Assembly: GCF_013122565.1 (NCBI RefSeq)
Contig: NZ_CP053258.1
Length of the DNA: 64,000 bases
Strand: one strand, 5' to 3'
Source: Escherichia coli
GTDB lineage: Bacteria; Pseudomonadota; Gammaproteobacteria; Enterobacterales; Enterobacteriaceae
Of this stretch, positions 3,457 through 60,142 are shown one piece after another. Under the pieces are notes generated by a model. It had not been told where the DNA came from, did no database searches, and saw only the letters and a list, made by a program, of their open reading frames with translations. A program made the translations under genes and the position numbers. How positions within the stretch are numbered: position 1 is the stretch's first letter; each line of letters starts with the position of its first letter.

Positions 3457-4019
3457 ATCGATTGCCCTTTGGCTTCATCCAGTTTGCCCTGCGCCAGGAG
3501 TAATAAGTCGCAAACTTCTCGCACTGCGCCACGACCGCCAGCAATGCGCGTCACGTAATCGGCGCGCGGGAGCAACAGTGGATGCGCATCGGCCACGGCG
3601 ACGCTTAAACCCACTTTTTCCATTACCGGCCAGTCGATGAGATCATCGCCGACATAAGCCACATTTTCCGGGGCAATCGCCAGTTTTTCCAGCAGATCGC
3701 TAAAAGCGATCAGTTTGTTTGACTGCCCCTGATACAAGTGAGTGATCCCCAATGTGGCACAACGATCTTCTACCAGTTTAGCCTTTCGCCCGGTAATGAT
3801 AGCGACTTCAATATCAGAGGTGAGCGCACAACGAATGCCATAACCGTCACGAACATTGAACGCTTTCAGCTCTTCGCCATTATTGCCCATATAAATCAGG
3901 CCATCTGACAGTACGCCATCGACATCGAGGATCAGCAGACGAATGTTCTCTGCTTTTGCTATAACGTCGGCGCTGACAGGGCCGTAACAGGTCGCAAGCG
4001 ACGCACCTGCTTTGCTCAT
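3453..4019 (-). CDS. kdsC: 3-deoxy-D-manno-octulosonate 8-phosphate phosphatase
   Basis: 188 aa HAD-family ORF (DVDGVL motif); overlaps lptC start by 4 nt. Confidence 0.95.
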   Translation of the reverse strand: MSKAGASLATCYGPVSADVIAKAENIRLLILDVDGVLSDGLIYMGNNGEELKAFNVRDGYGIRCALTSDIEVAIITGRKAKLVEDRCATLGITHLYQGQSNKLIAFSDLLEKLAIAPENVAYVGDDLIDWPVMEKVGLSVAVADAHPLLLPRADYVTRIAGGRGAVREVCDLLLLAQGKLDEAKGQSI

Positions 4020-19355: not shown

Positions 19356-21290
19356 ATGGCGAAAAACCTAATACTCTGGCTGGTCATTGCCGTTGTGCTG
19401 ATGTCAGTATTCCAGAGCTTTGGGCCCAGCGAGTCTAATGGCCGTAAGGTGGATTACTCTACCTTCCTACAAGAGGTCAATAACGACCAGGTTCGTGAAG
19501 CGCGTATCAACGGACGTGAAATCAACGTTACCAAGAAAGATAGTAACCGTTATACCACTTACATTCCGGTTCAGGATCCGAAATTACTGGATAACCTGTT
19601 GACCAAGAACGTCAAGGTTGTCGGTGAACCGCCTGAAGAACCAAGCCTGCTGGCTTCTATCTTCATCTCCTGGTTCCCGATGCTGTTGCTGATTGGTGTC
19701 TGGATCTTCTTCATGCGTCAAATGCAAGGCGGCGGTGGCAAAGGTGCCATGTCGTTTGGTAAGAGCAAAGCGCGCATGCTGACGGAAGATCAGATCAAAA
19801 CGACCTTTGCTGACGTTGCGGGCTGCGACGAAGCAAAAGAAGAAGTTGCTGAACTGGTTGAGTATCTGCGCGAGCCGAGCCGCTTCCAGAAACTCGGCGG
19901 TAAGATCCCGAAAGGCGTCCTGATGGTCGGTCCTCCGGGTACCGGTAAAACGCTGCTGGCGAAAGCGATTGCAGGCGAAGCGAAAGTTCCGTTCTTTACT
20001 ATCTCCGGTTCTGACTTCGTAGAAATGTTCGTCGGTGTGGGTGCATCCCGTGTTCGTGACATGTTCGAACAGGCGAAGAAAGCGGCACCGTGCATCATCT
20101 TTATCGATGAAATCGACGCCGTAGGCCGCCAGCGTGGCGCAGGTCTGGGCGGTGGTCACGATGAACGTGAACAGACTCTGAACCAGATGCTGGTTGAGAT
20201 GGATGGCTTCGAAGGTAACGAAGGTATCATCGTTATCGCCGCGACTAACCGTCCGGACGTTCTCGACCCGGCCCTGCTGCGTCCTGGCCGTTTCGACCGT
20301 CAGGTTGTGGTCGGCTTGCCAGATGTTCGCGGTCGTGAGCAGATCCTGAAAGTTCACATGCGTCGCGTACCATTGGCACCCGATATCGACGCGGCAATCA
20401 TTGCCCGTGGTACTCCTGGTTTCTCCGGTGCTGACCTGGCGAACCTGGTGAACGAAGCGGCACTGTTCGCTGCTCGTGGCAACAAACGCGTTGTGTCGAT
20501 GGTTGAGTTCGAGAAAGCGAAAGACAAAATCATGATGGGTGCGGAACGTCGCTCCATGGTGATGACGGAAGCGCAGAAAGAATCGACGGCTTACCACGAA
20601 GCGGGTCATGCGATTATCGGTCGCCTGGTGCCGGAACACGATCCGGTGCACAAAGTGACGATTATCCCACGCGGTCGTGCGCTGGGTGTGACTTTCTTCT
20701 TGCCTGAGGGCGACGCAATCAGCGCCAGCCGTCAGAAACTGGAAAGCCAGATTTCTACGCTGTACGGTGGTCGTCTGGCAGAAGAGATCATCTACGGGCC
20801 GGAACATGTTTCTACCGGTGCGTCCAACGATATTAAAGTTGCGACCAACCTGGCACGTAACATGGTGACTCAGTGGGGCTTCTCTGAGAAATTGGGTCCA
20901 CTGCTGTACGCGGAAGAAGAAGGTGAAGTGTTCCTCGGCCGTAGCGTAGCGAAAGCGAAACATATGTCCGATGAAACTGCACGTATCATCGACCAGGAAG
21001 TGAAAGCACTGATTGAGCGTAACTATAATCGTGCGCGTCAGCTTCTGACCGACAATATGGATATTCTGCATGCGATGAAAGATGCTCTCATGAAATATGA
21101 GACTATCGACGCACCGCAGATTGATGACCTGATGGCACGTCGCGATGTACGTCCGCCAGCGGGCTGGGAAGAACCAGGCGCTTCTAACAATTCTGGCGAC
21201 AATGGTAGTCCAAAGGCTCCTCGTCCGGTTGATGAACCGCGTACGCCGAACCCGGGTAACACCATGTCAGAGCAGTTAGGCGACAAGTAA
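19356..21290 (+). CDS. ftsH: ATP-dependent zinc metalloprotease FtsH
   Basis: ORF 19347..21290 (TTG) trimmed to ATG 19356 ([10 protein letters not shown]); Walker A GPPGTGKT, zinc motif HEAGH. Confidence 0.95.
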
Positions 21291-22228: not shown

Positions 22229-23558
22229 TCGTAAATATTTCGGTACCGATGGGATTCGTGGTCGTGTCGGGGATGCACCGATCACACCTGATTTTGTGCT
22301 TAAGCTGGGTTGGGCCGCGGGTAAAGTGCTGGCGCGCCACGGCTCCCGTAAGATTATTATTGGTAAAGACACGCGTATTTCTGGCTATATGCTGGAGTCA
22401 GCACTGGAAGCGGGTCTGGCGGCAGCGGGCCTTTCCGCACTCTTCACTGGCCCGATGCCAACACCGGCCGTGGCTTATCTGACGCGTACCTTCCGCGCAG
22501 AGGCCGGAATTGTGATATCTGCATCGCATAACCCGTTCTACGATAATGGCATTAAATTTTTCTCTATCGACGGCACCAAACTACCGGATGCGGTAGAAGA
22601 GGCCATCGAAGCGGAAATGGAAAAAGAGATCAGCTGCGTTGATTCGGCAGAACTGGGTAAAGCCAGCCGTATCGTTGATGCTGCGGGTCGCTATATCGAG
22701 TTTTGCAAAGCCACGTTCCCGAACGAACTTAGCCTCAGCGAACTGAAGATTGTGGTGGATTGCGCAAACGGTGCGACTTATCACATCGCGCCGAACGTGC
22801 TGCGTGAACTGGGGGCGAACGTTATCGCTATCGGTTGTGAGCCGAACGGTGTAAACATCAATGCCGAAGTGGGGGCTACCGACGTTCGCGCGCTCCAGGC
22901 TCGTGTGCTGGCTGAAAAAGCGGATCTCGGCATTGCCTTCGACGGCGACGGCGATCGCGTGATTATGGTTGACCATGAAGGCAATAAAGTCGATGGCGAT
23001 CAGATCATGTATATCATCGCGCGTGAAGGTCTTCGTCAGGGCCAGCTGCGTGGTGGCGCTGTGGGTACATTGATGAGCAACATGGGGCTTGAACTGGCGC
23101 TGAAACAGTTAGGAATTCCATTTGCGCGCGCGAAAGTGGGTGACCGCTACGTACTGGAAAAAATGCAGGAGAAAGGCTGGCGTATCGGTGCAGAGAATTC
23201 CGGTCATGTGATCCTGCTGGATAAAACCACTACCGGTGACGGCATCGTTGCTGGCTTGCAGGTGCTGGCGGCGATGGCACGTAACCATATGAGCCTGCAC
23301 GACCTTTGCAGCGGCATGAAAATGTTCCCGCAGATTCTGGTTAACGTGCGTTACACCGCAGGTAGCGGCGATCCGCTTGAGCATGAGTCAGTTAAAGCCG
23401 TGACCGCAGAGGTTGAAGCTGCGCTGGGCAACCGTGGACGCGTGTTGCTGCGTAAATCCGGCACCGAACCGTTAATTCGCGTGATGGTGGAAGGCGAAGA
23501 CGAAGCGCAGGTGACTGAATTTGCACACCGCATCGCCGATGCAGTAAAAGCCGTTTAA
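22221..23558 (+). CDS. glmM: Phosphoglucosamine mutase
   Basis: 445 aa ORF with phospho-Ser loop SASHNP; start overlaps folP stop by 8 nt. Confidence 0.97.
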
Positions 23559-23579
23559 AGCGTCAGATAACTGGCTAAA

Positions 23580-23606
23580 AAGGCGGCGATTGTCGCCTTT
23601 TTTCTC
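23580..23606 (+). terminator. Hairpin plus T-run after glmM
   Basis: AGGCGGCGATTGTCGCCTTTTTTC. Confidence 0.55.
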
Positions 23607-23785
23607 GGCGAACACATCGGTTTTGCTGTTTTTTTCCGCAGTTGATACAATGCGATAAAATTGCCCTTGCGAAGGTCATTCGCTTTGGTTAGTATTCACA
23701 CCCGCTTCAGTGGGAAAGATTAAAAACTCCCGCTTTATTGGTTGAAGCATTGGTACGCGGCAACTCCGCAAGGAACAGGTTGATT

Positions 23786-24118
23786 ATGTACGAAGCTCTT
23801 TTGGTAGTTTTCCTTATTGTGGCAATTGGCCTTGTTGGTCTGATCATGCTGCAGCAAGGTAAAGGCGCTGATATGGGAGCCTCCTTCGGAGCAGGCGCTT
23901 CCGCTACGCTGTTTGGTTCAAGTGGTTCTGGTAACTTCATGACCCGCATGACGGCGTTGCTGGCAACGTTATTCTTCATCATCAGTCTGGTGCTGGGTAA
24001 CATCAATAGCAACAAAACCAATAAAGGTAGCGAATGGGAAAACCTGAGTGCGCCGGCGAAAACCGAACAAACTCAGCCAGCTGCTCCGGCTAAGCCGACC
24101 AGCGATATCCCGAACTAA
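23786..24118 (+). CDS. secG: Preprotein translocase subunit SecG
   Basis: ORF 23738..24118 trimmed to ATG 23786 (MYEALLVVFLIVAIGLVGLIMLQQGKG). Confidence 0.95.
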   Translation: MYEALLVVFLIVAIGLVGLIMLQQGKGADMGASFGAGASATLFGSSGSGNFMTRMTALLATLFFIISLVLGNINSNKTNKGSEWENLSAPAKTEQTQPAAPAKPTSDIPN

Positions 24119-24132
24119 AAAGTAGTATCCGT

Positions 24133-24219
24133 GCCGAGGTGGTGGAATTGGTAGACACGCTACCTTGAGGTGGTAGTGCCCAATAGGGCTTACGGGTTCA
24201 AGTCCCGTCCTCGGTACCA
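24133..24219 (+). tRNA. leuU: tRNA-Leu (anticodon GAG)
   Basis: 87 nt GCCGAGGTGGTGGAATTGGTAGACACGCTACCTTGAGGTGGTAG...GGTACCA; long variable arm, CCA end encoded; immediately 3' of secG. Confidence 0.95.
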
Positions 24220-24230
24220 AATTCCAGAAA

Positions 24231-24256
24231 AGAGACGCTGAAAAGCGTCTTTTTTC
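24231..24256 (+). terminator. Intrinsic terminator after secG-leuU
   Basis: AGAGACGCTGAAAAGCGTCTTTTTT. Confidence 0.8.
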
Positions 24257-24677
24257 GTTTTGGTCCTGGTCTGAGGAATGGTTGTCAGGTATCTGTATCT
24301 CGTCCAGTTGCTTTACTCGTAGCTGGTACCTTGAAACGATGGTGCCGGTACGCCTTAGTTATAAATTTTTCCCTTCTGCTGACATAATTGGCACTTTATT
24401 GTGTCAACTCCAGTTCCGGTACGAATACGGATATGTTTACTTCTCGATAAACCATCCTGCTCCTGTCAGTATAACGACTGATGGCTACGTTCTGCGTAAT
24501 GTTTAGAGACGCATTGATAATGTTATTTAATTACTGAGAACGCAATGGCCGCATCATTTAAAAAGAAAAAACTAACAGTGTTTCGTTCTGATATGGATCA
24601 GAGTTGAAAAATATGTCTGATATAAAATTGAACATTGTTGATAATTGTTTATATTGGTTGTGAACTTGGATTTCTGG

Positions 24678-26303
24678 ATGACAGTATTCAACAAATTTGC
24701 TAGAAGTTTTAAATCTCATTGGTTGTTGTATCTTTGTGTTATTGTTTTTGGTATTACGAACTTAGTCGCCTCTTCCGGAGCGCATATGGTTCAGCGCTTG
24801 CTGTTCTTCGTCCTGACCATCCTGGTTGTTAAACGTATATCATCCCTTCCGCTTCGCCTGCTTGTTGCCGCACCATTTGTGTTACTGACTGCGGCAGACA
24901 TGAGTATTAGCCTCTATTCATGGTGTACCTTTGGTACAACTTTCAATGATGGATTTGCGATTAGTGTGCTCCAGAGTGATCCGGATGAAGTTGTCAAAAT
25001 GCTGGGGATGTATATCCCTTATCTATGTGCTTTTGCTTTTTTATCCCTTCTTTTTTTGGCAGTAATAATAAAATATGATGTTTCCTTGCCGACAAAAAAA
25101 GTGACAGGAATATTATTGCTGATTGTCATTTCGGGCAGTTTATTTTCTGCTTATCAATTTGCTTATAAAGATGCAAAAAATAAAAATGCGTTCAGTCCAT
25201 ATATACTAGCGTCGCGATTTGCTACCTATACGCCGTTTTTCAATCTCAATTATTTTGCTTTAGCAGCGAAAGAGCATCAAAGATTACTCTCAATTGCAAA
25301 CACGGTGCCGTATTTTCAATTATCAGTCAGGGATACAGGTATTGATACCTACGTGTTGATTGTGGGGGAGTCTGTACGTGTCGACAATATGTCTTTGTAT
25401 GGATATACACGCTCTACGACACCGCAAGTCGAAGCACAAAGAAAACAGATCAAACTGTTTAATCAAGCAATAAGCGGCGCACCTTACACTGCGCTGTCGG
25501 TTCCCCTTTCTTTAACTGCTGATTCTGTTTTGAGTCATGACATTCATAATTACCCCGACAACATTATTAATATGGCTAATCAGGCAGGATTTCAGACTTT
25601 CTGGCTAAGTTCGCAATCCGCTTTTCGGCAGAATGGTACAGCAGTTACCAGTATCGCCATGCGCGCCATGGAAACAGTTTATGTCAGAGGATTTGATGAA
25701 TTGTTGTTGCCGCATTTATCGCAAGCATTACAGCAAAATACGCAGCAAAAGAAACTGATTGTTCTTCATTTAAATGGAAGCCATGAACCGGCTTGTAGCG
25801 CCTATCCGCAGTCCAGCGCCGTGTTTCAACCGCAGGACGATCAGGATGCCTGCTATGACAACTCCATTCATTACACAGATAGTTTGCTAGGTCAGGTTTT
25901 TGAATTATTAAAAGAGCGCCGCGCCTCGGTCATGTATTTTGCCGACCACGGCCTGGAACGTGACCCTACGAAGAAGAACGTCTATTTTCATGGAGGCAGG
26001 GAGGCTAGCCAGCAGGCATATCATGTCCCGATGTTTATCTGGTATAGCCCCGTTCTTGGGGATGGCGTGGATCGCACAACGGAAAACAACATCTTTTCGA
26101 CAGCTTACAATAATTACCTTATTAATGCGTGGATGGGGGTAACAAAGCCGGAACAGCCGCAAACGCTTGAGGAAGTGATTGCACACTATAAAGGAGACTC
26201 ACGGGTTGTGGATGCAAACCATGATGTTTTCGATTATGTGATGCTCAGAAAGGAGTTTACAGAGGATAAGCAAGGTAACCCCACCCCTGAAGGGCAGGGT
26301 TGA
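24678..26303 (+). CDS. yhbX: Putative phosphoethanolamine transferase (sulfatase-domain, EptA/OpgE-like)
   Basis: ORF 24645..26303 trimmed to MTVFNKFARSFKSHW; N-terminal TM helices plus C-terminal sulfatase domain; AT-rich codon usage. Confidence 0.88.
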   Translation: MTVFNKFARSFKSHWLLYLCVIVFGITNLVASSGAHMVQRLLFFVLTILVVKRISSLPLRLLVAAPFVLLTAADMSISLYSWCTFGTTFNDGFAISVLQSDPDEVVKMLGMYIPYLCAFAFLSLLFLAVIIKYDVSLPTKKVTGILLLIVISGSLFSAYQFAYKDAKNKNAFSPYILASRFATYTPFFNLNYFALAAKEHQRLLSIANTVPYFQLSVRDTGIDTYVLIVGESVRVDNMSLYGYTRSTTPQVEAQRKQIKLFNQAISGAPYTALSVPLSLTADSVLSHDIHNYPDNIINMANQAGFQTFWLSSQSAFRQNGTAVTSIAMRAMETVYVRGFDELLLPHLSQALQQNTQQKKLIVLHLNGSHEPACSAYPQSSAVFQPQDDQDACYDNSIHYTDSLLGQVFELLKERRASVMYFADHGLERDPTKKNVYFHGGREASQQAYHVPMFIWYSPVLGDGVDRTTENNIFSTAYNNYLINAWMGVTKPEQPQTLEEVIAHYKGDSRVVDANHDVFDYVMLRKEFTEDKQGNPTPEGQG

Positions 26304-26310
26304 TGTCGAA

Positions 26311-27669
<1,359 letters not shown>

Positions 27670-27695
27670 TTAATTAACTGATGATGAGCCTGGAT

Positions 27696-27732
27696 TTCCG
27701 CTCTCACTGAATTTTTATGCAAAATAAATGAG
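27696..27732 (-). promoter_or_regulatory. Candidate ARG boxes (ArgR operator) upstream of argG
   Basis: Two adjacent TGAAT/ATTCA-like palindromic 18-mers (TGAATTTTTATGCA, TAAATGAGTTTTCATT) 40-80 bp upstream of argG start. Confidence 0.4.
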
Positions 27733-27879
27733 TTTTCATTTAATCATCTTTTATCGGAGACAGGAAGAGTTTAGTGTGTTTTTTGTAAAATAATGCGCTT
27801 AAGGGAGAGCAGGAGAAGGCAAAAGTATTCAACAAATGAAAGTGAACTGGATATTCATTCACGTGATTAGCAATAAACG

Positions 27880-27909
27880 TTGACAAAATGTGGCATGGAT
27901 CACTATAAT
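27880..27909 (+). promoter_or_regulatory. Sigma-70 promoter upstream of metY operon
   Basis: TTGACA (27880-27885), 18-bp spacer, TATAAT (27904-27909). Confidence 0.55.
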
Positions 27910-28001
27910 GCCTGCAGATTTTACGTCCCGTCTCGGTACACCAAATCCCAGCAGTATTTGCATTTTTTACCCAAAACGAGTAGAATTTGCCACGTTTCAG
28001 G

Positions 28002-28078
<77 letters not shown>

Positions 28079-28200
28079 CTTTCCCTTAGAGTCCTTTTTC
28101 AAATATACTGTGAAGACTTCGGCCTTCGTAGTGGGATTTGAAAAAATCCTTCTGGAAAGTGCTCCAGACCGCAGTTGCGGTTATAGGGTTCAGTTATATA

Positions 28201-28226
28201 AAGCCCCGATTTATCGGGGTTTTTTG
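28201..28226 (+). terminator. First terminator/attenuator between metY and rimP
   Basis: AAGCCCCGATTTATCGGGGTTTTTTG. Confidence 0.75.
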
Positions 28227-28247
28227 TTATCTGACTACAGAATAACT

Positions 28248-28268
28248 GGGCTTTAGGCCCTTTTTTTA
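28248..28268 (+). terminator. Second terminator/attenuator between metY and rimP
   Basis: GGGCTTTAGGCCCTTTTTTT. Confidence 0.65.
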
Positions 28269-28284
28269 TGTCTTGGGGGTGGGC

Positions 28285-28737
28285 TTGTCCACATTAGAGC
28301 AAAAATTAACAGAGATGATTACTGCGCCAGTTGAGGCCCTGGGTTTTGAACTGGTTGGCATCGAATTTATTCGCGGTCGCACATCCACACTGCGCATCTA
28401 TATTGATAGTGAAGATGGCATCAATGTTGATGATTGTGCTGATGTGAGCCACCAGGTAAGTGCTGTGCTGGATGTTGAAGATCCCATCACCGTTGCTTAT
28501 AACCTGGAAGTCTCCTCACCGGGTCTCGATCGCCCACTGTTCACGGCTGAACACTACGCCCGTTTTGTCGGAGAAGAGGTGACTCTGGTTCTCCGTATGG
28601 CGGTACAAAACCGTCGTAAATGGCAGGGCGTTATCAAAGCGGTAGACGGTGAAATGATCACAGTTACCGTCGAAGGTAAAGATGAAGTGTTCGCGCTGAG
28701 TAATATCCAGAAGGCGAACCTGGTTCCCCACTTTTAA
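28285..28737 (+). CDS. rimP: Ribosome maturation factor RimP
   Basis: ORF 28273..28737; TTG at 28285 gives (M)[24 protein letters not shown]. Confidence 0.88.
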
Positions 28738-28764: not shown

Positions 28765-30252
<1,488 letters not shown>

Positions 30253-30276
30253 TAAACTGTAGCAGGAAGGAACAGC

Positions 30277-32949
30277 ATGACAGATGTAACGATTAAAACG
30301 CTGGCCGCAGAGCGACAGACCTCCGTGGAACGCCTGGTACAGCAATTTGCTGATGCAGGTATCCGGAAGTCTGCTGACGACTCTGTGTCTGCACAAGAGA
30401 AACAGACTTTGATTGACCACCTGAATCAGAAAAATTCAGGCCCGGACAAATTGACGCTGCAACGTAAAACACGCAGCACCCTTAACATTCCAGGTACCGG
30501 TGGAAAAAGCAAATCGGTACAAATCGAAGTCCGCAAGAAACGCACCTTTGTGAAACGCGATCCGCAAGAGGCTGAACGCCTTGCAGCGGAAGAGCAAGCG
30601 CAGCGTGAAGCGGAAGAGCAAGCCCGTCGTGAGGCAGAAGAATCGGCTAAACGCGAGGCGCAACAAAAAGCTGAACGTGAGGCCGCAGAACAAGCTAAGC
30701 GTGAAGCTGCTGAACAAGCGAAACGTGAAGCTGCGGAAAAAGACAAAGTGAGCAATCAACAAGACGATATGACTAAAAACGCCCAGGCTGAAAAAGCCCG
30801 CCGTGAGCAGGAAGCTGCAGAGCTCAAGCGTAAAGCCGAAGAAGAAGCGCGTCGTAAACTCGAAGAAGAAGCACGTCGCGTTGCTGAAGAAGCACGTCGT
30901 ATGGCGGAAGAAAACAAATGGACTGATAACGCGGAACCGACTGAAGATTCCAGCGATTATCACGTCACTACTTCTCAACATGCTCGCCAGGCAGAAGACG
31001 AAAGCGATCGTGAAGTCGAAGGCGGCCGTGGCCGTGGTCGTAACGCGAAAGCAGCGCGTCCGAAGAAAGGCAACAAACACGCTGAATCAAAAGCTGATCG
31101 TGAAGAAGCACGCGCAGCAGTACGTGGCGGTAAAGGCGGAAAACGTAAAGGTTCTTCGCTGCAGCAAGGCTTCCAGAAGCCAGCTCAGGCCGTTAACCGT
31201 GACGTTGTGATCGGCGAAACTATCACCGTTGGCGAACTGGCGAACAAGATGGCGGTTAAAGGCTCTCAGGTCATCAAAGCGATGATGAAACTGGGCGCAA
31301 TGGCAACCATCAACCAGGTTATCGATCAGGAAACCGCACAGCTGGTTGCTGAAGAGATGGGCCACAAAGTTATCCTGCGTCGTGAAAACGAGCTGGAAGA
31401 GGCGGTAATGAGCGACCGTGACACGGGTGCTGCGGCTGAACCGCGCGCGCCGGTTGTGACCATCATGGGTCACGTTGACCACGGTAAAACCTCTCTGCTG
31501 GACTACATTCGTTCAACGAAAGTGGCCTCTGGCGAAGCGGGCGGCATTACCCAGCACATTGGTGCATACCACGTTGAAACTGAAAACGGCATGATCACCT
31601 TCCTGGACACCCCGGGGCACGCCGCGTTTACTTCAATGCGTGCACGTGGTGCGCAGGCAACGGACATCGTAGTCCTGGTTGTTGCTGCCGACGACGGCGT
31701 AATGCCGCAGACCATCGAAGCAATCCAGCACGCGAAAGCGGCGCAGGTACCGGTGGTGGTTGCAGTGAACAAGATCGATAAACCAGAAGCCGATCCGGAT
31801 CGTGTTAAGAACGAACTCTCCCAGTATGGCATCCTGCCGGAAGAGTGGGGTGGTGAAAGCCAGTTCGTACACGTATCTGCGAAAGCGGGTACCGGCATCG
31901 ATGAACTGCTGGACGCTATCCTGCTGCAGGCGGAAGTTCTGGAGCTGAAAGCGGTACGTAAAGGTATGGCGAGCGGTGCGGTTATCGAATCCTTCCTCGA
32001 TAAAGGTCGTGGTCCGGTTGCTACCGTTCTGGTACGTGAAGGTACTCTGCACAAGGGCGATATCGTTCTGTGTGGCTTCGAATACGGTCGTGTTCGTGCG
32101 ATGCGTAACGAACTGGGTCAGGAAGTGCTGGAAGCGGGTCCGTCCATTCCGGTGGAAATCCTCGGCCTGTCCGGCGTTCCGGCTGCGGGTGATGAAGTTA
32201 CCGTTGTACGTGACGAGAAGAAAGCGCGTGAAGTTGCACTCTATCGTCAGGGTAAATTCCGCGAAGTTAAACTGGCGCGTCAGCAGAAATCTAAACTCGA
32301 GAACATGTTTGCCAACATGACCGAAGGCGAAGTTCACGAAGTGAATATCGTCCTGAAGGCAGACGTACAGGGTTCTGTGGAAGCGATCTCCGACTCCTTG
32401 CTGAAACTGTCTACTGACGAAGTTAAAGTGAAGATCATCGGTTCTGGCGTAGGTGGTATCACCGAAACCGACGCCACCCTGGCTGCGGCGTCCAACGCCA
32501 TCCTGGTTGGCTTCAACGTACGTGCTGATGCCTCTGCACGTAAAGTGATTGAAGCGGAAAGCCTGGATCTGCGTTACTACTCCGTCATCTATAACCTGAT
32601 CGACGAAGTGAAAGCGGCGATGAGCGGTATGCTGTCTCCGGAACTGAAACAGCAGATTATCGGTCTGGCGGAAGTTCGTGACGTGTTCAAATCGCCGAAA
32701 TTTGGTGCCATCGCAGGCTGTATGGTTACCGAAGGTGTGGTTAAACGTCACAACCCGATCCGCGTTCTGCGTGACAACGTGGTTATCTATGAAGGCGAGC
32801 TGGAGTCCCTGCGCCGCTTCAAAGATGACGTTAACGAAGTCCGTAACGGTATGGAATGTGGTATCGGCGTTAAGAACTACAACGACGTCCGCACTGGCGA
32901 TGTGATCGAAGTATTCGAAATCATCGAGATCCAACGTACCATCGCTTAA
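30277..32949 (+). CDS. infB: Translation initiation factor IF-2
   Basis: 890 aa ORF; charged repeat N-terminal region, G-domain [12 protein letters not shown] / DTPGH / NKID. Confidence 0.97.
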
Positions 32950-57003: not shown

Positions 57004-57795
57004 TTACAAAATGCCGAATGCGGAACAAACAATAGAGAGCACAAAAGTTACGCCGATTAACAGCACCGGATGCGCTTTTTTCACCCGCAGGAAGTAATAC
57101 ATCAGCAGGGTGTAGGCCATCGGTAAAATGTTCGGGAAGACTTTATCGAAGAAATCCTGCTGCAGCGCGACGCTGTGGGTACTGTCGATGGCAAACGACG
57201 TCACCACGTTAATATGCACATACGAAGCGATCAGACCGCCGATTACCGTGATCCCGAGGATGGTTGCCGAACGGGCAATCATCTGCGAGTTCTCTCGTAC
57301 TTTATCGATCGCCTTCACGCCGACTGAATAACCGACGTGGGTCCAGCCGACGCGCAGGAAAAAGATAAGCAGGTAAACGGCGAAAAATAGAATCGGCCCC
57401 AGCAGGTTTCCCTGACTGGCAAACGATGAGCAAATCCCCGCCATAATTGGCAATAAGGTAAACCAGAAAATCGCATCTCCAATCCCGGCGATTGGGCCAA
57501 ACAGTGCCACTTTGAGGCCTTTAATGGTGTCGCGGTTTTCTCCTTTTTCTTCCATCGAAATTAATAACCCCATCAGGAATCCGACCAGATTCGGGTGGGT
57601 ATTAATAAATTCGAGGTTATCTTTCATCGCTGCGCTTAGGCCCGGTTTGTCGTCCTTATAAATCTTTTTCAGGATCGGCAACATCGCCCAGGTAAAACCG
57701 CCCGCCTGCATCCTTTCGTAGTTAAAGCTCGCTTGCAGCAGCGACGAACGAAAGCCCAGACGGGTGATATCTTTTTTACTGATTTCAGATCCCAT
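57004..57795 (-). CDS. agaD: PTS mannose-family IID component (GalNAc/galactosamine)
   Basis: ORF 57004..57942 trimmed to MGSEISKKDITRLGFRSSLLQASFNYERMQ. Confidence 0.9.
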   Translation of the reverse strand: MGSEISKKDITRLGFRSSLLQASFNYERMQAGGFTWAMLPILKKIYKDDKPGLSAAMKDNLEFINTHPNLVGFLMGLLISMEEKGENRDTIKGLKVALFGPIAGIGDAIFWFTLLPIMAGICSSFASQGNLLGPILFFAVYLLIFFLRVGWTHVGYSVGVKAIDKVRENSQMIARSATILGITVIGGLIASYVHINVVTSFAIDSTHSVALQQDFFDKVFPNILPMAYTLLMYYFLRVKKAHPVLLIGVTFVLSIVCSAFGIL

Positions 57796-58588
57796 TGCTG
57801 TAGTCCTCTTCTTCATTTTTACTGGCAACGGGCTGCGGTTGCGCTTGCTGCCGGGATTTCGCATTGAAAAACTCATACACCGCAAAGCCTGCACCCAGTA
57901 CGGCAACCGGCAACAGGTTGCTGACCTGGATGTAGCAAACAAACAGGAAGCCGGCGATCAGATAAGGGATATATTGTGCTTTGAACATCACGCGCAGCAG
58001 CAAGCCAAAACCAACGGCAGGCAGAATACCGCCAGCCACTTCAAAGCCGTGGGTCAGCCAGGCGGGCATCGCTTTCACCAGCGCCTGCATCGCCCCTTGT
58101 GCCAGGTAAGTACAGAGGAAAGCAATCACCGCATACGCTGAAGCGACGATGAGCATCGTTGTCCAGTTAAGTCGGGAAAACGCTGCCGTATCCGCTTCTT
58201 TCGCGCATTTATCGGCTTTGGTCATAAACAATGAGAAAGCAGAATAGAAGAACAGAATGACGTACTGCATTAACAAACTAAACGGTAGGCCAAGACCAAT
58301 TGCCGTTTTGGCATCAACGCCCGTAGACCATGCAATGACGGTGGTCATCAGACCCGCCATAATAGGGTTGGGCGGCTGAACACCACCTGCAGGGGTTAAT
58401 CCGGCGAAAGCCAACTCTGTCAGACCACCGGTAATTAAGCCAGTCTGAATATCACCGAGAATAGCGCCAGTTAGGGTACAAACGATTATCGGGCGGAATA
58501 AAAATAAGGCTTCCAGCCAAAAATCAATCCCCAGAACGAAAACTAACGCCGCCAGGGATAATCCCTGAAGTAGGGTTATTTCATGCAT
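57785..58588 (-). CDS. agaC: PTS mannose-family IIC component
   Basis: 267 aa polytopic ORF; overlaps agaD start. Confidence 0.92.
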   Translation of the reverse strand: MHEITLLQGLSLAALVFVLGIDFWLEALFLFRPIIVCTLTGAILGDIQTGLITGGLTELAFAGLTPAGGVQPPNPIMAGLMTTVIAWSTGVDAKTAIGLGLPFSLLMQYVILFFYSAFSLFMTKADKCAKEADTAAFSRLNWTTMLIVASAYAVIAFLCTYLAQGAMQALVKAMPAWLTHGFEVAGGILPAVGFGLLLRVMFKAQYIPYLIAGFLFVCYIQVSNLLPVAVLGAGFAVYEFFNAKSRQQAQPQPVASKNEEEDYSNGI

Positions 58589-58626
58589 TTTTATTACCTC
58601 AAACCAATATTAAGGCGATTTTAGAT

Positions 58627-59103
58627 TTAGTCAGGGATTTGTTCTTTTTGATCGCCAGGGACGTCCTGAATGAAAACATTCACGCCACGTTGTTTAATAA
58701 AACGTAAGTCCGCGAGATCCTGGTCATCGACATAAACTTTACTGCTGATTTGCTTTTTCCCTTCCGAGAAATGCATATTGCCGACGTTGACATCGTTCAG
58801 GTCAATACCACCTTCTACCAATTTACGTACCGTTTGTGGCGTACGGCAAATCAGGAAGATCTTCTGATGTGGTGCAGCTTTGCCGATGACGTTAATGGTT
58901 TTTTCGATAGTAAAGAAACGAATGCCAAAGCCGTAGGTTTCCGCGGTAATACCCATTAATTTCTGTTGAATATCATCGTTAGCGACAACATCATCCACGA
59001 CTACCAGCAGATTTGCACCGATGGTGGATGTCCAGGTCACGCCAACCTGGCCATGAACCAGACGGTTATCAATACGGGTTAAGAGAATATTTGGACTGCT
59101 CAT
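58627..59103 (-). CDS. agaB: PTS mannose-family IIB component
   Basis: 158 aa ORF with phosphorylation-site region NILLTRIDNRLVHGQV. Confidence 0.92.
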   Translation of the reverse strand: MSSPNILLTRIDNRLVHGQVGVTWTSTIGANLLVVVDDVVANDDIQQKLMGITAETYGFGIRFFTIEKTINVIGKAAPHQKIFLICRTPQTVRKLVEGGIDLNDVNVGNMHFSEGKKQISSKVYVDDQDLADLRFIKQRGVNVFIQDVPGDQKEQIPD

Positions 59104-59269
59104 TGTGTAATCCTCACCATAAAGTTGAATAATATAATCTTTTTAAATATATTATTGTTGCGATATTGTACTGATGTATTTATTAAGGTTTAGTTATCTC
59201 CTTTACCATTAAAGTACTCCCCGATATTAATCGGGAAGTACTTTGGGATAAATCATAAAAAACTAATGA

Positions 59270-60142
<873 letters not shown>

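Follow-up and report, generated by a model that had tools for sequence, protein, structure and literature searches.

In the 64-kb stretch of Escherichia coli DNA analysed here (hereafter, the window), the gene yhbX lies between a tRNA gene and the 3' end of argG. On its left, secG (23786-24118) and leuU (24133-24219, plus strand), identified as the gene for tRNA-Leu(GAG) by ARAGORN, by an Rfam tRNA match of 52.8 bits and by the annotation of E. coli records, belong to a unit that ends with leuU, the left neighbour of the insert described below. This unit has an intrinsic terminator (24227-24256, plus strand) that was recognized by the terminator scan, by folding and by alignment; it consists of a 13-bp stem followed by a T-run, with a folding energy of -19.5 kcal/mol (z = -4.5), is also present in the aligned Salmonella and Citrobacter sequences, and lies outside the variable segment. 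Then follow the yhbX upstream region (24257-24677, plus strand; 38% GC), presumably comprising the promoter and the 5' UTR, and the yhbX coding sequence (24678-26303, plus strand), which encodes 541 amino acids from the annotated ATG, the longest open reading frame beginning at a TTG at 24645. On the right, argG, the gene for argininosuccinate synthase (26311-27654, minus strand), converges upon yhbX. The yhbX TGA occupies 26301-26303 and the complement of the argG TAA occupies 26311-26313, leaving a gap of 7 bp (26304-26310); reading the sequence confirms the 7-bp distance between the convergent stops (26301-26313) that the sequence-only reading had given, and this gap is unchanged in 9/9 E. 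coli sequences. Between 24262 and 26309, yhbX is the sole long open reading frame and the sole annotated gene.

When GC content and codon adaptation were computed, as that reading had proposed, yhbX proved distinguishable from its flanks, and its description as an AT-rich gene is upheld and extends to atypical codon usage. The 39 neighbouring genes average 0.525 GC (sd 0.024), whereas yhbX has 0.431 (z = -3.9); its GC3 is 0.424 (z = -2.2) and its GC1 is 0.496. Compared with the neighbouring genes, yhbX has both the lowest locally referenced codon adaptation index (0.352) and the highest share of rare codons (12.2%), and the yhbX area contains the lowest-GC 1.6-kb stretch of the entire window (0.403, where the window averages 0.518 with an sd of 0.028). 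The low GC3 could in part be caused by low expression rather than by foreign origin.

The comparison of genomes shows that this slot is variable. The segment that varies, which we call the yhbX cassette, spans 24262-26318, as delimited by BLAST breakpoints, alignment and haplotype counts; the breakpoints fall at 24261/24262 and 26309/26310, and the alignment moves the right edge to 26318/26319. Hence, the left junction is found 42 bp beyond leuU, past the leuU terminator, and the right junction, according to the alignment, within the final two codons of argG. This segment is present in 5,165 of the 5,426 complete E. coli genomes, and in 237 of the 5,426 its place is taken by another cassette (1.17 kb, 35-40% GC), which codes for an HTH protein of 317 aa. 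The slot was compared within E. coli and, beyond Escherichia, in other genera. In Salmonella diarizonae and two Citrobacter species the site is empty, that is, leuU is followed by some 180-210 bp and then by argG, with no yhbX; this empty site is documented by four Salmonella and Citrobacter genomes only. The Salmonella/Citrobacter spacer carries a GGCCGCGCAAGCGGCC-T(5-6) terminator 3' of argG, and both this terminator and a REP element are intact in the empty sites, with no deletion scars. Further afield, the leuU-metY distance in Edwardsiella and Tenebrionibacter is 56-58 bp, and in these two genera as well as in Hafnia rimP-nusA lies directly downstream of leuU, with neither argG nor yhbX in between, while in Intestinirhabdus unrelated cargo is found 3' of leuU. 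Insertions have repeatedly made use of the space between leuU and metY.

The protein encoded in this segment is predicted to have some five hydrophobic helices at its N-terminus, after which comes a domain with the sulfatase fold. Specifically, a Kyte-Doolittle profile shows approximately five hydrophobic segments within residues 13-163, and PF00884 of Pfam matches residues 224-467 (E = 5.5e-56). Among the PDB structures, YhbX matches E. coli EptC (5zzu; 9.6e-24) and Neisseria EptA (5fgn; 2.5e-23), and its catalytic residues E231, T271, H369, D423-H424 and H449 align with the 5fgn motifs GET..., STAHS, GSHGP, SDHGE and THIPM, respectively, and also match the catalytic residues of EptC in 5zzu. 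The roles of these residues, the threonine as nucleophile and the glutamate, the Asp-His pair and the histidine in metal binding, we take to be those seen in the EptA and MCR-1 structures. The earlier assignment to a family of envelope-modifying enzymes thus stands, with the sulfatase fold and the catalytic Glu, Thr, His and Asp-His aligned to EptA, and, judging from the sequence, YhbX belongs to the phosphoethanolamine-transferase family and is a putative enzyme of the inner membrane, with the sulfatase-fold domain presumably in the periplasm. It shares the PF00884 catalytic domain with EptA/PmrC, EptB, EptC/CptA, OpgE/YbiP and MCR-1 to MCR-13, and its five or so hydrophobic segments would correspond to the N-terminal membrane helices of that family; full-length homology to the EptA and CptA models starts at residues 18-43 of YhbX and spans residues 18-485. 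Unlike these transferases, however, YhbX shows no detectable Pfam EptA_B_N domain, forms a small clade of its own, and falls far short of the curated cut-offs in all named NCBIfam transferase models (EptA, EptB, CptA/EptC and MCR-1 to MCR-13). The best scores were 157.9, 140.9, 120.4 and 103.9 bits, against cut-offs of 500, 404, 561 and 493 bits, respectively, and the MCR models, whose cut-offs are 1,075-1,250, gave 32-71 bits. A PADLOC search yielded no match of YhbX to a defence system. The function of YhbX had not been established as of 2014 (PMC4013655), and none is reported in the later literature that we found.

With a threshold of E <= 1e-30, the clade of YhbX comprises no more than 123 representative clusters, with no representative between 50% and 99% identity. 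The closest relatives, 41-48% identical, come from the scattered taxa Buttiauxella, Pectobacterium, Mixta and Microvirgula and reside in unrelated neighbourhoods; no donor lineage could be identified among these nearest representatives. Within E. coli, yhbX is intact in 9/9 sampled strains; its dN/dS is 0.096, as compared to 0.012 for argG and 0.024 for secG, and its dS (0.069) falls between those of secG (0.043) and argG (0.098). These values show yhbX to be under purifying selection, which makes the transfer of phosphoethanolamine from phosphatidylethanolamine to an envelope glycan or lipid the most likely activity of the putative enzyme.

The spacer between leuU and yhbX, 458 bp to the annotated ATG and 425 bp to the TTG, is the longest among the 26 intergenic regions that were measured, and the leuU intrinsic terminator takes up its first 37 bp. 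The upstream region had been described as about 420 bp long and visibly AT-richer than the flanking genes; the length is borne out by the 425 bp to the TTG, and the region is AT-rich, with a GC content of 0.384 that is, however, usual for local intergenic DNA, which spans 0.30-0.70 (0.372 for argG-metY). Sequence divergence of this region within E. coli is 1.4%, and the possibility that it is under constraint, as the contrast with the dS of 6.9% might imply, was rejected because neighbouring intergenic regions diverge by 0.7-2.3%, a range that includes 1.4%. The best match in a consensus scan, a candidate sigma-70-like promoter (24628-24655, plus strand; TTGAAC, a 16-nt spacer and TATATT), is located directly upstream of yhbX; the number of promoter-like matches in that scan was not in excess of that in shuffled sequence (7 seen, 5.7 expected). 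An RpoH genomic-SELEX peak maps to the leuU-yhbX spacer (PMC5493296). An Rfam scan of 23500-28500 (E <= 1) recovered only two tRNAs and the rimP leader and left the upstream region blank. A 74-aa open reading frame (24282-24506) was rejected as a gene: with 5 third-position and 6 first-position sites among the 11 variable sites counted by hand in the alignment, there is no third-position excess. As regards silencing by H-NS, which the sequence-only reading considered probable, the yhbX locus resembles H-NS-silenced xenogeneic genes in its AT content (57-68% over 24300-25400) and in its lineage-specific origin. It differs from them in that the high-affinity motif is hardly more common than elsewhere (4 matches, or 1.95/kb, against 1.33/kb in the window, an uninformative excess of about 1.5-fold), in that promoter-like sites are not enriched, and in that yhbX knockouts give phenotypes in screens; the latter argue against a complete silence of yhbX.

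The 3' end of argG differs between the haplotypes. In the yhbX haplotype ArgG ends in ...NKGQ and in the HTH haplotype in ...NKVK, while the C-terminus is ...NNAK in Salmonella and ...NKAK or ...SKAK in the two Citrobacter genomes. The HTH haplotype has kept both the canonical argG terminator and this ancestral-like ...VK end, whereas the yhbX haplotype has neither the canonical terminator nor the ancestral final two codons of argG, a loss that accounts for the spacing of only 7 bp between the stops. The terminator scan found no canonical terminator between or near the yhbX and argG stops, the only terminator-like site being that of leuU, which was called on both strands. This agrees with the previous statement that the stops are not separated by a terminator, which, however, needs to be qualified, since a stable hairpin on the argG strand, revealed by folding and passed over by the terminator scan (26277-26301, minus strand), starts 10 nt past the argG stop, with 9 nt intervening, inside the final 8 codons of yhbX. 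This hairpin, which may serve argG as a 3'-end structure or as a weak terminator, has an 11-bp stem and a 3-nt loop, is invariant in 9/9 E. coli sequences and lacks a U-tract; its tail reads UACCUUGCUUAUCC, with no U-tract directly following, so it does not qualify as an intrinsic terminator for argG. The argG-strand RNA past the stop is C-rich and G-poor (C/G about 1.6 over 200 nt), which makes a Rho-dependent end of argG plausible from the sequence; a literature search returned no data on the argG 3' end or on Rho at this site.

That transcripts of each gene must read into the other, as had been claimed, follows from the tail-to-tail geometry, which forces the overlap, and is in line with an RNA-seq catalogue of 165 convergent excludons in MG1655, which includes argG-yhbX, with overlap in at least 50% of the 58 transcriptomes (PMC12288877). 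One could imagine that this arrangement is a selected, functional excludon, in which transcription of argG, derepressed under arginine limitation, silences yhbX and vice versa, via antisense RNA or collision of polymerases. Such a device would be compatible with the frequency of the overlap in the transcriptomes, with the invariance of both the geometry and the hairpin in nine strains, and with the absence of the ancestral terminator specifically from the yhbX haplotype. Nevertheless, we consider it improbable: at such divergence, some 30 nt would be expected to stay invariant by chance, insulated synthetic operons have been placed into the argG-yhbX gap with no harm reported (PMC12421378), and the overlap is explained most simply as a side effect of the junction. 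Like other convergent excludons, argG-yhbX is a listed pair with closely spaced stops, but, unlike them, its overlap can be traced to an insertion junction at which an ancestral terminator was lost. A still bolder proposal, in which the slot holds a stable dimorphism of E. coli, yhbX versus the HTH regulator, and the acquisition of a foreign envelope enzyme, which deleted the argG terminator and altered the ArgG C-terminus in the majority haplotype, created an arginine-responsive and possibly selected antisense link by which argG read-through controls yhbX, appears slightly less probable again.

Two further views concern the origin of yhbX itself. Its position directly 3' of leuU had suggested that the tRNA gene served as an integration anchor, and yhbX could be envisaged as the remnant of a classical island, brought in by an integrase acting at leuU, with the integrase and the attachment repeats since eroded. 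The adjacency to leuU, the atypical composition, the variable presence in E. coli and the unrelated cargo behind leuU in Intestinirhabdus all fit, and the locus resembles the tRNA islands of E. coli at selC, pheV, pheU and leuX in being tRNA-adjacent, AT-rich and strain-variable, with alternative cargo. Unlike those islands, it consists of a single gene, with no integrase or integrase fragment and no attachment-site repeats or duplication of the tRNA 3' end: the sequences 24125-24320 and 26230-26345 share no k-mer of at least 8 nt, and the two 7-mers shared by the ends of the segment, one direct and one inverted, are at the level expected by chance (about 1.5 per orientation). Since integrase and flanking repeats are both absent, tRNA-targeted integration is unsupported, and the location of the junctions speaks against it as well: the left one lies beyond the tRNA and its terminator, and the right one lies inside argG and looks like the product of an illegitimate or homologous replacement, not of site-specific integration. 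Of all the views weighed here, the eroded island seems to us the least credible. It is also rather unlikely, if not to quite the same extent, that yhbX was present in the enterobacterial ancestor, was lost by Salmonella and Citrobacter and owes its low GC to low expression, relaxed selection or the composition typical of membrane proteins. Poor codon adaptation is indeed typical of low-expression genes, the dN/dS of yhbX does exceed those of argG and secG, and distant homologues exist in other Enterobacterales. However, the GC3 of other membrane proteins in the window (mtr, mlaE, yhbE and yrbG) is 0.55-0.68, the homologues are non-syntenic and less than 50% identical, the empty sites retain REP element and terminator with no scars of deletion, the deeper outgroups do not have even argG at this slot, and a second AT-rich cassette alternates with yhbX.

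Taken together, the absence of yhbX from the Salmonella/Citrobacter spacer, the distant, non-syntenic homologues and a dS similar to that of the flanking genes fit the ancient acquisition that had been proposed, and the following scenario can be envisaged. yhbX and its upstream region would constitute an AT-rich, single-gene islet of about 2.05 kb that entered the leuU-argG spacer of the E. coli lineage once this had separated from Salmonella and Citrobacter but before present-day E. coli diversified, with no recognisable involvement of a tRNA-targeted integrase. The placement of the islet, or a later deletion, would have cost the locus its ancestral REP element and its canonical argG terminator and rewritten the final two codons and the stop of argG, bringing the stops to within 7 bp of each other. 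With this spacing, argG transcripts would enter the 3' end of yhbX in the antisense orientation, passing the U-less hairpin, and would probably stop via inefficient hairpin-dependent or Rho-dependent termination, whereas yhbX transcripts would run on into argG. As a whole, this explanation, namely an acquired islet with an envelope enzyme, placed with no tRNA-targeted integrase and causing read-through by loss of the argG terminator, appears to us quite likely to be correct.

Both the yhbX gene and the overlap of its transcripts with those of argG have already been catalogued, and the locus is largely ordinary, so that the significance of the above is small beyond the natural history of the E. 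coli genome. Still, yhbX is an annotated orphan in the phosphoethanolamine-transferase family, which includes the MCR enzymes of colistin resistance, and for those who seek its function it is useful that the gene appears, from its sequence, to be lineage-specific and maintained by selection, with its catalytic residues intact. On the practical side, the argG-yhbX gap, which serves as a neutral site for insertions, is the very place where the 3' end of argG would form. The junction provides a small, clean case of how the acquisition of a gene can strip a core neighbour of its terminator and lead to convergent transcript overlap.

Convergent with argG, yhbX lies between two conserved gene strings, the order in the window being ftsH-folP-glmM-secG-leuU, yhbX, argG and metY-rimP-nusA-infB. 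The tRNA gene leuU occupies 24133-24219 and its intrinsic terminator 24227-24256; yhbX, counted from the annotated ATG, spans 24678-26303 on the plus strand and argG 26311-27654 on the minus strand. At the DNA level, identity to the best complete genome is 99.3%, and the encoded YhbX is identical to one deposited E. coli protein. When 40 annotated genes were mapped onto the window from a near-identical genome, yhbX ranked lowest in GC content (0.431; z = -3.9 against a mean of 0.525, sd 0.024, for the remaining 39), in GC3 (0.424) and in locally referenced CAI (0.352), and highest in its share of rare codons. Its composition can thus be told apart from that of the flanks, and the impression of the sequence-only reading that the gene is AT-richer than its flanks holds. 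Nowhere in the 64 kb is GC lower over 1.6 kb than in the stretch beginning at 24151 (GC 0.403). The 458-bp leuU-yhbX spacer is exceeded in length by no measured intergenic region, and its GC content (0.384) is ordinary for intergenic DNA in the window. The second lowest-GC patch of the window is 57004-60130, where 300-bp windows fall to 0.33 near 59050-59400. It takes in agaB, agaC and agaD of the galactosamine PTS as well as kbaY, for tagatose-bisphosphate aldolase; NCBIfam equivalog models confirm all four. Between metY and rimP, the rimP leader (Rfam RF01770) gives a full-length match of 102 bits at 28167-28267. Opposite ftsH and nusA, mechanical ORF calling yields antisense frames of 495 and 489 aa (19584-21071 and 28951-30420, both on the minus strand) that the reference records leave without annotation; probably they only shadow the sense frames and do not code.

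What did the slot look like before yhbX? Scanning the exact leuU sequence against reference genomes returned 16 loci. In Edwardsiella, Tenebrionibacter, Hafnia and one Enterobacteriaceae MAG (loci L004 4191-4410, L014 1543-1764, L012, L008 and L017), rimP-nusA follows leuU directly and argG is missing from between them, with only 56-58 bp separating leuU from metY in Edwardsiella and Tenebrionibacter; yhbX, too, is missing there in Edwardsiella, Tenebrionibacter and Hafnia. Hence, argG as well was inserted between the secG-leuU and metY-rimP-nusA-infB units in a lineage-specific way, in Salmonella, Citrobacter and Escherichia. It is present in Salmonella enterica subsp. diarizonae, Citrobacter amalonaticus and Citrobacter sp. 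MGH106, where only ~180-210 bp separate it from leuU. Within that spacer lie the leuU terminator, which is conserved, a REP-like element and, ~20 nt past the argG stop, a canonical terminator for argG (GGCCGCGCAAGCGGCC plus a T-run). The REP-like palindrome, of the GCCGGATGGCGGCG...CGCCTTATCCGGCCTAC type, lies between the two terminators in S. diarizonae (L016 ~3860-3990) and C. amalonaticus (L013 ~760-900) and is missing from both E. coli haplotypes.

Short partial sequences aside, no YhbX relatives at 50%-99% identity emerged from an exhaustive profile search covering 1.84 billion representative proteins. The closest, at 41-48%, come from Buttiauxella, a Pectobacterium, Mixta gaviniae and the betaproteobacterium Microvirgula, and in the two genomes examined they are solitary genes in unrelated neighbourhoods. 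In a published listing, too, YhbX is given for E. coli and not for Salmonella LT2 or C. rodentium (PMC4013655). Taken together, the empty slots, the distant relatives, their unrelated contexts and this distribution support acquisition of yhbX within the Escherichia lineage. The earlier suggestion of an acquired gene is accordingly well supported, and its junctions are now defined.

Within E. coli, the slot is dimorphic. The leuU-yhbX-argG segment is found in 5,165 of 5,426 complete genomes; in 237, yhbX is replaced by another cassette of 1.17 kb and 35-40% GC (L020 1760-2975 in strain 1943). In a red-fox isolate, this DNA, enlarged by an IS1 that splits its gene (L002 6163-8106), stands exactly in place of window 24262-26309. 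On the argG strand, the cassette codes for WP_001012978, a protein of 317 aa whose N-terminal part shows a weak XRE-type helix-turn-helix (HTH) domain. The rest of it is uncharacterised, and PHROG and PADLOC offered no convincing assignment for the protein. When argG 3' ends of the two haplotypes, Citrobacter and Salmonella were aligned, the haplotypes proved identical through ...GAAAACAAAG and divergent beyond. The HTH haplotype continues with TTAAGTAA, giving an ArgG that ends ...NKVK, and has a canonical terminator, GGCCGCAAATGCGGCC-T7; Citrobacter resembles it (...NKAK or ...SKAK, plus terminator), and Salmonella ArgG ends ...NNAK, also followed by a terminator. The yhbX haplotype continues with GCCAGTAA (ArgG ...NKGQ) and then runs directly into the end of yhbX. 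The event behind the yhbX haplotype therefore stripped argG of its ancestral last two codons, stop and terminator, a loss that explains the close spacing of the two stop codons.

This spacing, the 7 bp noted from the window, recurs in 9/9 E. coli sequences compared. As anticipated, no terminator separates the genes: the gap is too short for one, and a terminator scan called none near the stops. On the argG strand, a hairpin with an 11-bp stem (26277-26301) begins 10 nt past the argG stop and sits within the last eight yhbX codons, its tail lacking a U-run. The next 200 nt of this RNA are C-rich and G-poor (C/G ~1.6), which would be compatible with Rho loading on the untranslated antisense transcript.

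As to the mode of insertion, no integrase, repeat of the tRNA 3' end or flanking repeat was found at the yhbX islet, and its left junction lies beyond the leuU terminator. Therefore, the proposed role of the tRNA as an integration anchor is unsupported, and leuU, which is no demonstrated target of recombination, serves as a landmark for an insertion point that has been used repeatedly. In Intestinirhabdus alba (L018 1396-10804), at least 9.4 kb after leuU is taken up by accessory genes. They code for a DUF4822 protein, a protein resembling DcrB, an ABC exporter that carries a C39 peptidase domain and, in one operon, chaperone-usher fimbriae (an usher, a PapD-like chaperone and FimA-like subunits); argG, rimP and nusA are not within reach of leuU. 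A glmM-secG gap of ~3.9 kb in Citrobacter sp. MGH106 (L019 4737-8615) and Shimwellia pseudoproteus (L006 807-4710), as compared to 227 bp in E. coli, looks like another insertion into the same conserved gene string.

Once in place, yhbX has been maintained. It is intact in all eight diverse E. coli sequences analysed (the window and seven strains), and its dS (0.069) falls between those of secG (0.043) and argG (0.098), so that it diverged along with its flanks. The gene is under purifying selection, less strict than that on argG (dN/dS 0.096 versus 0.012). A sulfatase domain is the sole Pfam match in YhbX, preceded by about five hydrophobic segments within residues 13-163, as judged from hydropathy; the best relatives of solved structure are E. 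coli EptC and Neisseria EptA. In the alignment to the latter (5fgn), E231, T271, H369, D423-H424 and H449 match EptA motifs; in the published EptA and MCR-1 structures, these residues bind the metal and supply the nucleophilic Thr. The NCBIfam CptA, EptA, EptB and MCR models cover most of the protein with scores far below their cut-offs. Thus, judging from sequence, YhbX is a catalytically competent-looking member of the phosphoethanolamine-transferase family that falls outside every characterised subfamily.

Sequence proxies for H-NS were uninformative, and silencing by this protein is a reasonable but unsupported guess. Phenotypes reported for yhbX knockouts in screens, along with an RpoH SELEX peak in the spacer upstream of the gene (PMC5493296), suggest that yhbX is not fully silent. 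The predicted overlap of transcripts is already on record: argG-yhbX is one of 165 convergent excludons, i.e. convergent gene pairs with overlapping transcripts, detected by ExcludonFinder in 50% or more of 58 MG1655 transcriptomes (PMC12288877). The argG-yhbX gap also serves as a neutral insertion site, with bidirectional terminators added (PMC12421378). Since both the gene and the transcript overlap are already known, they are in themselves of little interest. What is modestly new is that the leuU-argG slot is dimorphic for yhbX and the HTH cassette, and that argG lost its ancestral terminator and C-terminal codons at the junction.
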